A stretch of DNA of 64,000 nucleotides, from NCBI GenBank assembly GCA_964016885.1, contig OZ024742.1, positions 201,996,001 through 202,060,000 on the forward strand. The letters run 5' to 3'. Shown here in pieces: positions 38,320 to 49,599 of this stretch. The notes below the pieces were generated by a model, which saw only the letters and a program-made list of their open reading frames with translations, did not search any database and was not told the origin of the DNA. The number at the start of each line of letters is the position of its first letter. Position 1 is the stretch's first letter. The translations under genes were made by a program, and so were the position numbers. Source of the DNA: Eledone cirrhosa. Its lineage: Eukaryota.

Positions 38320-38429
38320 TTGTTGAACAAGACCAGATCTGGCGTCCATATGGCAGCAGCCGGTACCTCGATGGTCTTCAGCCCTGCGTACTCGCTTGGG
38401 TTCCACTTCAGCCATATATCCCACCATTC
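38320..38429 (-). CDS. Nicotinic acetylcholine receptor subunit, internal 110-bp loop-A exon (variant B)
   Basis: AG|GAATGG...TTCAACAA|GTAAGT; translates EWWDIWLKWNPSEYAGLKTIEVPAAAIWTPDLVLFN(N), matching the Cys-loop W-x-D-x-x-L-x-W-x-P..IW-x-PD motif; phase 0 to 2. Confidence 0.92.
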
Positions 38430-38671
38430 CTTAAGCAAGACCATAAGTGTTGAGTAAAAATCGTTTGCTATTAATGAATGAATTTGTCGTAAACAACGAG
38501 TGTACGTATATATGTATGCATATGTATATATATATATATATATATATATATATATATATATATATATATATATATATATATATATATAAATGTGTGTGTG
38601 TGTGTGTGGATGATTACATTATATATATTGCGATTGCGGACTGAATCTTCTGATATTGTAATACATATATA

Positions 38672-39020
38672 TATAATAAAAACATTAATGAAGATGGCGA
38701 TTTTACATAAATCCGTTATTCATTATAATTATTTCAACACTTATCCCATGCAATCAAGATGTAATTCATGCATTTGTTGTTGTTATGAGAACGGTATCCT
38801 CAGATGAAATTCAATTTTGTGATATGCCGCCGGCTAAAGGGCGTGTATTTTCGTGCCGGCGGCATATGACAAAATCGATTTTTATCTGAGGACACCGTTC
38901 TCATAACAGCAACAGATGCATGAATTACATCTTGATTGCATGGGAGAACCGTTGCAATAATTATAATGAATAAACGATTTATGTAACATCAGCATCTCTA
39001 TTGATGTGATTATTATTATA
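38672..39020. mobile_element. About 350-bp fold-back element carrying hammerhead motif
   Basis: Arms mirror around spacer 38835-38854 (atatgccgccggc / gccggcggcatat); moderately diverged. Confidence 0.8.
38720..38807 (-). ncRNA. Type I hammerhead motif (stem II eroded)
   Basis: On minus: TCAT-CTGAGGA-taccgttctc...gtt-GAAA-TAATTA-TA/ATGA; the mirror copy (38882-38969 +) keeps a better stem II but has a mutated GAAA. Confidence 0.6.
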
Positions 39021-40600
39021 CTGAATCTCCATCATAACTACAAATTACAAATGTTTTACCAAAACAATCTCTTCGGAATACACACAATTATATATGTATA
39101 TATCTTATATATATATACACACACATATATATATATATATATATATATATATATATATATATATATATATATATATATATCATATATCACACACACACAC
39201 ACACACACACATATATATATATATATATATATATATATATATATATATATATATATATATATATATATATATATATATATATATATATATATATATATAT
39301 ATATATAAACATACATTTATAACTTGTTAGACAGTGAACGAATGAGTGTTGTTTAAGTAACAAATTACCACACACTTGTACGATCGTTTCAAAGAGCAAA
39401 TGGATGGATGCGGAGAAAAGTTGGTGTTAGTTATTTTGCCACATATACATTCATACATTGTTAGAATATTCAAACATTCAATTTGCATTATTATCCATAA
39501 ATAAGTACACAGGTAACTATAAGTATATATATGAATATCTATATGTGCGTATATGGCTATATGTAAATGTATTCACATATGTATATATCATACATATCTA
39601 TATATCTACATCTATATACATATACATGTGTGTGTGTGTATGTATATATATATATATATATATGTATATATATATATAATATATATATATATATATATAT
39701 ATATATATATATATATATATATATATATATATATATATATATATATATATATATATATATATATATATGTGTGTGTTTGTGTTTAATGGTAGCTATGATG
39801 CTTCCATAGGCGGTATGCCAGTTGAGCACTCTATGTTCTCACAGAGCAGAGTGTGATATAATACACATCCATACTATGATCGTGTCTCGAGCTATCTGCT
39901 GGCGAAACAATTGTAACACACAATAAACTGAGTCCAGATGCATCACTGATTTTTCGTTTTATATTATATTATATATATATATATATATATATATATATAT
40001 ATATATATATATATATATATAATATAATATATAAATATATACACACACACATAGATATATACATATATATGTATAAATATATATATATAAATATATATAT
40101 ATAAATATATATATATATATATATATATATAATATATAAATATATACACACACACATAGATATATACATATATATATATAAATATATATATATAAATATA
40201 TATATATATATATATATATATATATATATATATATATATATATATATATATATATATATATATATATATATATATATATATTATATATATAAATATATAT
40301 ATATAAATATATATATATATATATATATATATATATATATATATTATATATATATATATATATATATATTTATATATATATATATATATATATATATGTT
40401 TGTGTATATATATATATAAAGGTGTAGGAGTAGCCACTTTTGAAGATGATACTCAATACGTTGTTTAAGTATTGATTTTCACAGCACTACAAATGTCTCA
40501 TACGAATGAAACGTTACTAATTCTGACGAAGTCACCAGGTGATAGTTGAACCGTTAAGGTCTCATTCCTGGATATGTCAATATTTATAAAACCAACTTTG

Positions 40601-40660
40601 TATTTTATCTGATGAGGGCGTACCAAATTTTGGTACCCTTGAAATATATATAATAGAATA
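40601..40660 (+). ncRNA. Type I hammerhead ribozyme
   Basis: TATTTTAT-CTGATGA-GGGCGTACCAA-att-TTGGTACCCTT-GAAA-TATATA-TA/ATAGAATA; 8-bp stem I, AUA triplet. Confidence 0.75.
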
Positions 40661-41052
40661 AATATGGTTTCATAAATATAGTTTCCATTTATTAATATCA
40701 TTGATATTATACTCCAGAAAAGTTGTCGAGTGCTTCGAATCTGTTATAAATATATTTGTTGAATTACCAACAAATTAAATATCCCTTTGCTTATATACAT
40801 ATATATATATATATATGGAAAAAAAAATCTAATTTATTACACAAGGAGCCGTAGAAACGGCTTGAACTTGTTTATATATATATACATATATATATATATA
40901 TATATAAAATATATATATATATAAAAGTTCAACCCGTTTCGATATATATATATATATATATATATACATACTTATATATATATATATATATACATATATA
41001 TATATATATATACTTATATATATATATATATATATATATATATATATATATA

Positions 41053-46693: not shown

Positions 46694-46878
46694 GGGATTG
46701 GCAGATTCCGTTGAGCATCAGACACCTTGCTTTACAGCATAGAGCTATGGCCCTTTATGTTCTGAGTTCAAATCCCGCTGAGGTTAACTTTGCCATTTCT
46801 GCTTACGGGTTCGATAAAATAAAGCACCAGTAATGTATTGGTGTAATTGCTGTCCTTGTGCCAAAAGGAGAAACAATT
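46694..46878 (+). mobile_element. tRNA-derived SINE, diverged copy
   Basis: ttggcagattccg, gagttcaaatcccgc, cgataaaataaagcaccag, ccttgtgccaaaaggagaaacaatt. Confidence 0.75.
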
Positions 46879-47183
46879 GTATTGTCCTCGGGAGGATGAA
46901 ACCCAAATTTGATCTCTGCGAGATTTTGAACACAGAGCAGAAAAATCTATTACTTATCATACTCAAACTAATGAAATAGTGGTTTCTAATTTACATATAA
47001 GGTCAACAATTTCGGAGTAGGGAGACATCAATCACACCGACCTCAGTACATTACTGATTTTTTTTTTTATTGAACACGGAAGAATGGAAGTTAAATTTAA
47101 CTGCGGCGTGATTTGAACGGAGAACCTAATGAACTATCATTCACCAATACAGCAAAGAATTTCTCCGACGTTCCAACGGTTCT

Positions 47184-47374
47184 AATAATTGTTTCTACTT
47201 TAGGTACAAGGCCAGCAATTACCCAGTGCATTACTGGTACTTTATTTTATCGACCCCGTAAGGATGAAAGGCAAAGTCAACCTCGGCGGGATTTGAACTC
47301 AGATCGTGAAGGGACGTAACTATGCTGGAAAGCATGGCGTCCGACCCTCTACCGATACTGCCAATCAACCGTCC
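47184..47374 (-). mobile_element. tRNA-derived SINE with target-site duplication
   Basis: Full copy on minus; TTCTAATAAT at 47180-47189 and 47375-47384; adjoins an older degenerate SINE at about 46975-47183. Confidence 0.88.
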
Positions 47375-49489
47375 TTCTAATAATACAACGTCCATACATG
47401 GAGAGCTAATTTATATAAATGCATTCATTCCACAATATATTTTTGTTGACATGTCTGATTAACAAAATGGTGGTGCTTGTGTTGTTTTATTGTTGTTGTT
47501 AGTGGTGGTGGTGGTCGTCGTGTTGGAGGTGGTGGTGGTCGACGTGGTGGTGGTGATGGTGGTGGTGGCGGTGTTGGTAGGCGTGGCGGGGGGTTGGTGG
47601 GTTGTGGTAATAAGAGTGTTGATGGGGATAGGGGTTGTGAGAAGAAAAAAAGATTTCCGCTATGTTGCTAGATAATGATAATCTTTTCATTATTGGTCAC
47701 ATGGTCCCAAGAATTTGGAGGCAGTAGAAGATTGAAATACAAACAGACAATACAACAATAATAACAATACGAAAAAATATTATAATACTCATAGTAACAT
47801 ATATGCGTATGTGCGTGCTGAGGTACATCCATATACATAAAGGTGTACAAGCGTATTGTGTAATATGTATGACTGTCATTCTACTCTCCTATACATAATC
47901 TTAAAGTTTGCCGAGTTACCTATAAATGGGCCTACTACATTTAGCATTATTGTTTTAGCAGTAATATATATGTATATACACACACACATATATATATATA
48001 TAAATATATATATATATATATATATATATATATATATATATATATATATATATATATATGTAAGTATGTGTGTATACGTACATACATATATGTATACAGA
48101 CGTACAGTAGCATGCACACATATATATATATATATATATATATATATATATATATATATATATATATATATATATATATATATATATATATATATATATA
48201 TATATATATATATATATATATATATATATATATATACATACAGGTGCACGTATCAGCTTAGCGGACGCTTATTATAACGCCGCTTTGTTCGTTTGTAAAC
48301 AAACTGAACAGCCTGAATTGTTATGCCGTACGGTGTTAAGGCAACCACGTCACCTTTTTGTTCAAGTAAGTGCCGTACTAAGAGTGAGAAATGAAATTTC
48401 GTTTTCATTTTATTTCAACTTATATATATATATATATATATATATATATATATATATATATATATATATATATATATACATATATTAATTATTACAGAGT
48501 TTGAAAAATATGGTACCTGGAGGTATCATAACATCAAAACCTGTAAAATTAAAAATTAAAAATTAAAAATAAATTATTGTGAAGCATATGTTGATGGGAT
48601 CCTAAAGGTACCGAAGTACCGTAGTGATACAAGGCGTGTCTGCGGCATTTAAACCTGACAGAGCCCATCAGTCTCCTGGTATGAACATAGCCACTTTCTT
48701 CCAAAACGACCGGGAGAGACAGATAGAGAAAGAGAGAGAGAGAGAGTGAGAGAGAAGGGTAGAGATAGAAAGCGAACGAGCGAGTGAGAGAGAGAGAGAG
48801 AAAGAAATGAGGAGAGTGAGAAAGAAATATAGAGTAAGAATCCACCCAATACCGCACTGGTATTTTATTTATTTCCTTGAAAGGAGGTAAGGCAAAGTTT
48901 ACCTGGGTAAGAATTTAATTCAGGGTGCAGAGTGCCGGAATGAATACCGCGAAATCATCTATCCGCGTTTCTAACGGCTCTTATATTTTGCCACCATGTA
49001 AAGCCTTTTACAGGCGAAAATATATAACAATTATTTATGATTCAATTTTCCTGTCTAAGAAAATGTGACTATCTATGTATGTCTGCGTGTGAGGTGTGAG
49101 TTTAATAGTGAGTGACGTATTATGGCTTTAATAGTGTTTATGATATAATATATATTTGATAAAATGTAACTTAATATTTCTTTAATAGGATGTGACGTAT
49201 TGTCTTAAAAAAGTATTTGCCTAGATTCACATACAGAGCCATAGGTCTCAATGCAGTTACGCTAATGTTTCGCTAATTTCTTTGTTGTTGTGGTTGCTTT
49301 TGTTTTATTTGTATTAGTTTCTATAACTAGCTAAATTTGGCAAACATTACCTATACAATACATTTTCATGTTGCTCAATACGTATCTCATAACATATTCA
49401 TTATTAAAGGAAGTGAATGGATTGCTATTTCTAGCTTGGCTATGCGTCAAATGTGACGTATTATGCCTATGATGCACTATACTACTTAC

Positions 49490-49599
49490 TTATTGTATAG
49501 TACGATGTCTGGTAACCAAAGTTCCACCGAGGGCACGTACAGTCGATTCACACCACCATATTCCTTCGGATTCCATGTTAGTTTGAGGTCCTGCCATTC
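49490..49599 (-). CDS. Nicotinic acetylcholine receptor subunit, internal 110-bp loop-A exon (variant A)
   Basis: TAG|GAATGG...TACAATAA|GTAAGT; translates [36 protein letters not shown](N), the classic invertebrate nAChR alpha loop-A exon; phase 0 to 2. Confidence 0.95.

Follow-up and report, generated by a model that had tools for sequence, protein, structure and literature searches.

Results

A Duplicated Loop-A Exon in an AChR-E Gene

The DNA analysed here, a stretch of 64,000 nucleotides (nt) from contig OZ024742.1 of the 3.0-Gb genome of Eledone cirrhosa (the window), contains on its minus strand two homologous exons, termed A and B, of a gene coding for a nicotinic acetylcholine receptor (nAChR) alpha subunit, both of which end in the agonist-binding loop A (Table 1). 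Each exon is preceded by AG, begins with GAATGG, ends with AA and is followed by GTAAGT, is open in frame 0, and aligns without gaps to nAChR chains at Torpedo alpha residues 59-94. Homologous neighbours of equal length, phase and splice sites are a hallmark of tandem-duplicated mutually exclusive exons, and the positions and borders of both open 110-bp exons agree with those proposed in an earlier, sequence-only reading of this DNA. The two exons share 60 of 110 nt at the DNA level and 18 of 36 amino acids, with 24, 26, and 8 of 36 identities at the first, second, and third codon positions, respectively. The third positions are thus saturated and the protein is conserved, indicating an old duplication under purifying selection, as had also been suggested before. 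Codon 35, corresponding to alpha 93, is TAC (Tyr) in exon A and TTC (Phe) in exon B, and codon 21 (alpha 79) encodes Tyr in A and Glu in B. The best match of exon B among solved structures is the Alvinella receptor 8bx5. Neither the window nor the fetched neighbouring loci contain runs of N.

Table 1. Parts of the receptor gene and candidate motifs. Plain ranges are positions of the window (G000:C3:201996001-202060000); all other positions refer to contig C3 (OZ024742.1).
Feature	Position	Strand	Length	Remarks
First coding exon	near 202,287,000	minus		start codon and signal-like sequence
Common upstream exon	G000:C3:202094062-202094018	minus	45 nt	single; outside the window
Intron, upstream exon to A	49600..64000 (part in window)	minus	48,418 nt	
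TGCATG	49655..49660	minus		RBFOX-type candidate motif, 61 nt before A acceptor; lead only
TACTAAC	49639..49645	minus		branch-point-like (or STAR-protein-like) candidate motif, 46 nt before A acceptor
Exon A	49490..49599	minus	110 nt	ancestral-type alternative exon, Torpedo alpha 59-94; codons Tyr79, 49539-49537, and Tyr93, 49497-49495
Intron, A to B	38430..49489	minus	11,060 nt	no receptor exon inside
Exon B	38320..38429	minus	110 nt	derived alternative exon, Torpedo alpha 59-94; codons Glu79, 38369-38367, and Phe93, 38327-38325
Intron, B to downstream exon	1..38319 (part in window)	minus	50,579 nt	
Common downstream exon	G000:C3:201983740-201982684	minus	1,057 nt	single; outside the window; Cys-loop, loops B and C, transmembrane segments 1-3
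Last exon	near 201,933,000	minus		

The anatomy of the gene was established with six exon-wise hidden Markov models, run in all six frames over 374 kb (G000:C3:201926001-202300000), and with additional family searches. The loop-A exon was found twice and every other exon once, all remaining matches having E values of at least 0.67, and the scan detected no other receptor exon between A and B (best other match, E 0.67). The assignment of both exons to one gene, as in the sequence-only reading, is borne out by the single shared exons that flank them. The translation of the downstream exon contains a Cys-loop and a loop C with adjacent cysteines and two tyrosines, the features by which nAChR alpha subunits are recognized, and is 97% identical to a protein from Octopus vulgaris, which clusters, as judged outside the alternative exon, with all mollusc sequences at a FastTree support of 0.935. 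As judged from this sequence relatedness, the locus is one nAChR alpha-subunit gene and represents the orthologue of AChR-E from Lymnaea and Aplysia. Transcripts containing either A or B alone would remain open through the large downstream exon, whereas those with both exons stop 1,145 nt, and those with neither 1,039 nt, before the last junction, which should render them targets of nonsense-mediated decay (NMD) by the established rules of this process.

Splice Junctions and Isoform Pairs

Four of 19 listed runs, none of them shown to be from E. cirrhosa, were aligned to the 5' part of the large downstream exon. Contig X1 (organism A) reads past the acceptor of this exon into the 3' end of exon B (30/30 identical), contig X11 (organism B) reads into the 3' end of exon A (27/30), and contig X3 extends beyond the acceptor by just the two-letter suffix common to A and B, as expected of a fork in the assembly graph. 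X1 also holds four of seven sampled words of exon A. The joined form present in these contigs skips the 50-kb intron. Junctions of both exons with one common downstream exon, which the sequence-only reading had predicted, are therefore present in contigs of related species. One UniRef gene model (P0147) carries both exons in series, which is probably a prediction artefact.

Alternative use of the two exons is also evident from database proteins, for which 28 pairs obtained by cluster look-ups, mostly predicted RefSeq models, were aligned pairwise. Sixteen pairs, 15 from molluscs and one from a nemertean, differ solely within this exon; they come from Octopus vulgaris, O. bimaculoides, Ostrea, Patella, Pecten, Mizuhopecten, Argopecten, three species of Haliotis, Biomphalaria (two pairs), Mytilus (two pairs), Pomacea, and the nemertean Lineus. 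Three further pairs (two from Octopus and one from Aplysia) show at most four differences outside the exon, and one is a cross-species pair. The 16 differences of a Crassostrea virginica pair and the 18 differences between Aplysia ApAChR-E (type E) and "alpha 2" all fall inside the exon, and the Lymnaea type E protein (exon A) and a Lymnaea gene model (exon B) are identical at 416 of 416 downstream residues. Exon A is present in LnAChR-E (ABA60384.1), the Aplysia AChR type E (AGI03861.1), and Aplysia "alpha 1" (AAL78648.1), and exon B in "alpha 2" (AAL78649.1). GenBank and NP accessions, as in the Aplysia pair, normally derive from submitted mRNAs. By sequence comparison, one gene gives rise to both Aplysia "alpha 1" and "alpha 2" through alternative splicing. 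The two isoforms of Lineus longissimus (P0160 and P0013) differ at eight residues, all in this exon, and both retain Tyr79 and Tyr93. The pair is therefore not specific to cephalopods, but present in cephalopods, gastropods, and bivalves, and has already entered the databases in the form of isoforms. All nine decapodiform-type sequences spanning the exon carry B and none carries A, the label of the unnamed contigs being based on their likeness to an Acanthosepion protein (P0002 cluster, P0003), and no A-type exon from decapodiforms occurs among the 120 of 369 matches listed in a search of cluster representatives. Exon A may thus be rare or lost in this group.

The frame test, the X1 and X11 junctions, and the isoform pairs agree with the mutual exclusivity suggested in the sequence-only reading, and A and B are almost certainly mutually exclusive exons. 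The remaining explanation, that they belong to two tandem genes or an assembly duplication, or that one of them is a pseudo-exon, draws on the location of the region in an nAChR gene cluster and on the origin of the splicing evidence from species other than E. cirrhosa. However, all other exons are single in the 374 kb, the 50 differences in 110 nt with saturated third positions are unlike those of a haplotype duplicate, related species splice both A and B to one acceptor, and isoform pairs are present in many species. This explanation is refuted for the related octopods and must be regarded as extremely improbable. The single first exon and the single 45-nt exon rule out tandem genes and a duplication of the 5' end, and the divergence of A and B rules out an assembly duplicate, the sole good match between their flanks (195 nt, 81%) being out of register and repeat-like. 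An origin of exon B from the neighbouring non-alpha gene is not favoured, as B, counted by eye, agrees with this neighbour at 15 of 36 residues but with exon A at 18 of 36.

Age of the Duplication and Residue Changes

Searches with exon A retrieved subunits of annelids, tardigrades, nematodes, and insects at 72-84% identity (among the matches listed), and searches with exon B retrieved two cephalopod proteins only, which identifies A as the ancestral type as far as sequence similarity indicates polarity. Mean identities for 20 A, 17 B, and 15 outgroup sequences are 0.78 (A-A), 0.60 (B-B), 0.55 (A-B), 0.72 (A-outgroup), and 0.54 (B-outgroup). In a tree of 61 sequences, the 26 B-type exons all group together as one clade (ultrafast bootstrap 91), and three class-specific duplications are rejected by the approximately unbiased (AU) test with 28 sequences (p 0.0002); given 36 columns, these results are suggestive rather than final. 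The AU test (p 0.54) is compatible with both a shared and an independent origin of the second Lineus exon. Cephalopods, gastropods, and bivalves diverged in the Cambrian. It is quite probable from these trees and tests that a single duplication occurred before the three classes separated.

Residue counts refer to the same 20 A and 17 B sequences, which do not represent independent events. Position 79 is Tyr in 20/20 A exons, and Glu (15/17) or Leu (2/17) in B; position 93 is Tyr in 20/20 A, and Phe (15/17) or Tyr (2/17, Mytilus and Patella) in B; position 87 is Leu in 20/20 A but only 1/17 B, where mostly polar residues are found; and position 75 is Val in 20/20 A, and Leu or Ile in 16/17 B. 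The loss of Tyr79 (17/17) is thus a more constant change in B than the gain of Phe93 (15/17). Phe93 occurs in the B exons of cephalopods, oysters, scallops, abalones, Pomacea, Aplysia, and Biomphalaria. Nine additional B-type exons, unpaired in this data set, contain Phe in five cases, Tyr in Arion, Bradybaena, and one further case, and Asp in Potamilus. The Tyr/Phe swap in loop A postulated in the sequence-only reading is therefore real in E. cirrhosa, but does not qualify as the defining switch, because several molluscs retain Tyr93 in exon B. Trp60, Asp62, Leu65, Trp67, Tyr72, Pro81, Trp86, and Pro88 are invariant in both exon types, and the E. cirrhosa exon B is identical to that of O. vulgaris at 35 of 36 residues.

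The cysteines of loop C are missing from the B-type genes annotated in Mya, Mercenaria, and Ruditapes, and a separate Mya gene combines an A-type exon with an intact loop C (P0261 and P0216 vs. P0081 and P0212 in Mya; P0219, P0220, and P0090). Judging from these sequences, the B-type and A-type genes of clams possibly represent splice forms that were partitioned after gene duplication. The Mytilus orthologue (P0192 and P0193) contains Tyr93 in both exons, yet its loop C is devoid of both tyrosines.

Neighbouring and Related Loci

The locus is surrounded by an nAChR gene cluster, with further nAChR genes on C3 at 200.5, 200.6, 201.1, and 204.0-204.3 Mb. The upstream tandem neighbour on the same strand (G000:C3:202756077-202891068; L052-L054) codes for a non-alpha subunit without a loop-C cysteine pair, which contains Thr87 and Phe93 and is a candidate partner subunit. 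Retrotransposon-like open frames are present on the plus strand in the introns of the gene (window positions 6470-9895, 33984-36206, 54061-56466, and 59143-61830; one of 1141 amino acids without stop), and by their motifs these are probably non-LTR (long terminal repeat) and Penelope-like elements. Another nAChR-type gene on a minus strand appears to contain its first ligand-binding-domain exon twice, 16 kb apart (G000:C6:66127408-66127533, L061, and C6:66111072-66111197, L062); these are followed by one loop-A exon and one large exon, and alternative first exons are possible in this case. More than 20 nAChR-like matches are densely arranged at G000:C11:23.62-23.92 Mb, with open and apparently intronless frames of about 380-430 amino acids, which presumably resemble the chemotactile receptor cluster of cephalopods.

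Discussion

Exons A and B should be regarded as mutually exclusive alternatives in the AChR-E orthologue that stem from one likely tandem duplication before the split of the mollusc classes, with the B-containing subunit likely exhibiting an agonist site that is weakened or retuned, along with changed contacts between subunits. We would assign a probability of about 0.85 to this explanation as a whole. Several observations weigh against this interpretation. Contigs X1, X3, and X11 come from other species and their RNA origin is guessed, and X18, the sole run recorded as RNA, yielded 0 reads with about 2% of it read. The upstream junctions come from database proteins, mostly predicted RefSeq models, and not from reads. 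In six of the 28 protein pairs, the two members agree throughout this exon (Tubulanus, Owenia with two pairs, Littorina, Mya, and Paramacrobiotus), and two pairs are uninformative because of incomplete proteins. A duplication confined to cephalopods is rejected by the AU test (p 0.01), but not by the Kishino-Hasegawa (0.054) and Shimodaira-Hasegawa (0.092) tests, and an unconstrained fast tree separated the B exons of Aplysia and Biomphalaria from the rest; moreover, with 36 columns and fast-evolving B exons, long-branch attraction is possible in all trees. Finally, Tyr93 is still present in exon B of Mytilus, Patella, Lymnaea, Arion, and Bradybaena.

The likeliest route to exclusion is a choice of the exon by splicing factors, combined with the removal of transcripts containing both or neither exon by NMD. 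Steric clash is an unlikely mechanism, because A and B are 11 kb apart, and no non-repetitive complementary stretch of more than 11 nt that might allow RNA pairing was present among six flanks of 600-1000 nt. The two candidate motifs before the A acceptor exceed their background on the transcribed strand of the gene (0.004 per 100 nt for TACTAAC and 0.022 for TGCATG), but were chosen post hoc.

As to the functional consequences, judged from the alignment and published work, exon B would remodel loop A of the principal face by replacing Leu87 with mostly polar residues and Tyr93 with Phe, and would change the complementary face at position 79 from Tyr to Glu, a position which we take to be equivalent to residue 79 in AChBP, the acetylcholine-binding protein, from the numbering and gap-free matches. 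The hydroxyl group of Tyr93 has been called crucial for acetylcholine recognition in vertebrate receptors (PMC4006026), and Tyr93 adds affinity at the fetal site, whereas the adult sites rely mainly on Tyr190, Tyr198, and Trp149 (PMC4621750). A table of Aplysia AChBP contacts places Arg79 on the complementary side (PMC7723979), and a simulation study of AChBP lists Glu153/Arg79 and Glu193/Arg79 as hydrogen-bond pairs (PMC3923797). Given these roles of Tyr93 and Arg79, exon B likely edits both faces of the subunit, and B-containing subunits may behave partly as accessory subunits. The non-alpha-like loop A of exon B and the B-type clam genes without loop-C cysteines speak for an agonist site that is weakened or retuned and for changed contacts, and at roughly even odds a reduced or retuned agonist site is the preferred consequence of exon B, ahead of an effect on assembly only and of redundancy.

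An effect of exon B mainly on assembly, partner choice, or trafficking, exerted via position 79 and the surface of residues 64-77 in equally exclusive exons, with nearly the same affinity and an incidental Phe93, is a serious competitor, if somewhat short of even odds. It would account for the greater constancy of the Tyr79 loss compared to Phe93 and for the five taxa retaining Tyr93 in exon B, and is in line with the small contribution of Tyr93 at adult muscle sites and the hydrogen-bond pairs of Arg79 in AChBP mentioned above (PMC4621750; PMC3923797); Phe at position 93 is also found in alpha-like subunits of spiders (P0069, P0077, and P0099). On the other hand, Phe93 is maintained in cephalopods, oysters, scallops, abalones, Pomacea, Aplysia, and Biomphalaria, and the B-type clam genes (Mya, Mercenaria, and Ruditapes) have also lost the cysteines of loop C, a change that implicates the agonist site. 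A redundant exon B, drifting under structural constraint alone and without a distinct function, might be seen in the lower mean identity among B than among A exons, but appears improbable in view of the near identity of B between E. cirrhosa and O. vulgaris, the occurrence of Glu79 in 15 of 17 B exons across three classes, and the exclusive use of B in the nine decapodiform-type sequences.

Exon 3 of the insect alpha6 gene is located near loop D. The insect alpha6 exons 3a/3b and 8a/8b/8c resemble the octopod pair in that their mutually exclusive use creates diversity from one nAChR gene (PMC2064938, PMC5111602), but belong to another subunit and to other exons, exon 8 coding for the second transmembrane segment (PMC2064938), and are not homologous duplications. 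The insect alpha4 exons 4/4' are also tandem-duplicated and used alternatively, code for part of an alpha subunit's ligand-binding domain, and belong to the same broad group of receptors, with insect alpha2/3/4/8-type proteins being among the matches. The earlier assumption that they lie at loop A is wrong, however, since it is loop E, the Cys-loop region, and loop B that differ between exons 4 and 4', whereas the octopod pair covers residues 59-94 and ends in loop A (PMC2064938, PMC12309072). The region of insect alpha4 exon 4 lies within the single constitutive downstream exon of the octopod gene, and homology between the two systems is ruled out by the different regions affected; they work alike only. 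Phe93 is shared by exon B with vertebrate beta3 (8a5u), the Alvinella receptor 8bx5, and the non-alpha neighbour on C3 with its Thr87 and Phe93, but these are whole separate subunits, while the octopod alpha subunit with its intact loop C switches one segment by splicing. The AChR-E genes of Lymnaea and Aplysia are orthologous to the octopod gene and differ in that their forms have been deposited as separate subunit names or unnamed isoforms.

No mention of the pair was found in the accessible parts of PMC6896357, PMC13174522, PMC3874043, PMC11589774, 10.1101/2021.05.17.444496, PMC9282427, and PMC5850729, of which the supplements of PMC6896357 and PMC13174522 could bear on it. A published description of the loop-A exon pair was not found within this coverage, to which the original Lymnaea and Aplysia cloning papers do not belong, and its absence from print is not established. 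The pair is apparently undescribed as a splice switch, though implicit in the databases.

Mutually exclusive nAChR exons are a textbook case in insects. In the molluscs, a different exon, which ends in the agonist-binding loop A, is used alternatively across three classes. LnAChR-E and ApAChR-E as named represent one of two forms, and the other form may have been overlooked, or pooled with the first, in work on the expression and pharmacology of this subunit in Aplysia, Lymnaea, and cephalopods. Tentatively, molluscs may have possessed since before the class split a splice switch between a full agonist-binding subunit (A) and an accessory-like one (B), by which cells would tune receptor stoichiometry and sensitivity through a choice of exon rather than gene; in some clams, the roles would later have been allotted to separate genes, and exon B may be the main or sole form in squids and cuttlefish. 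The pair of A and B represents a natural experiment on the roles of Tyr93 and position 79 in an invertebrate receptor.

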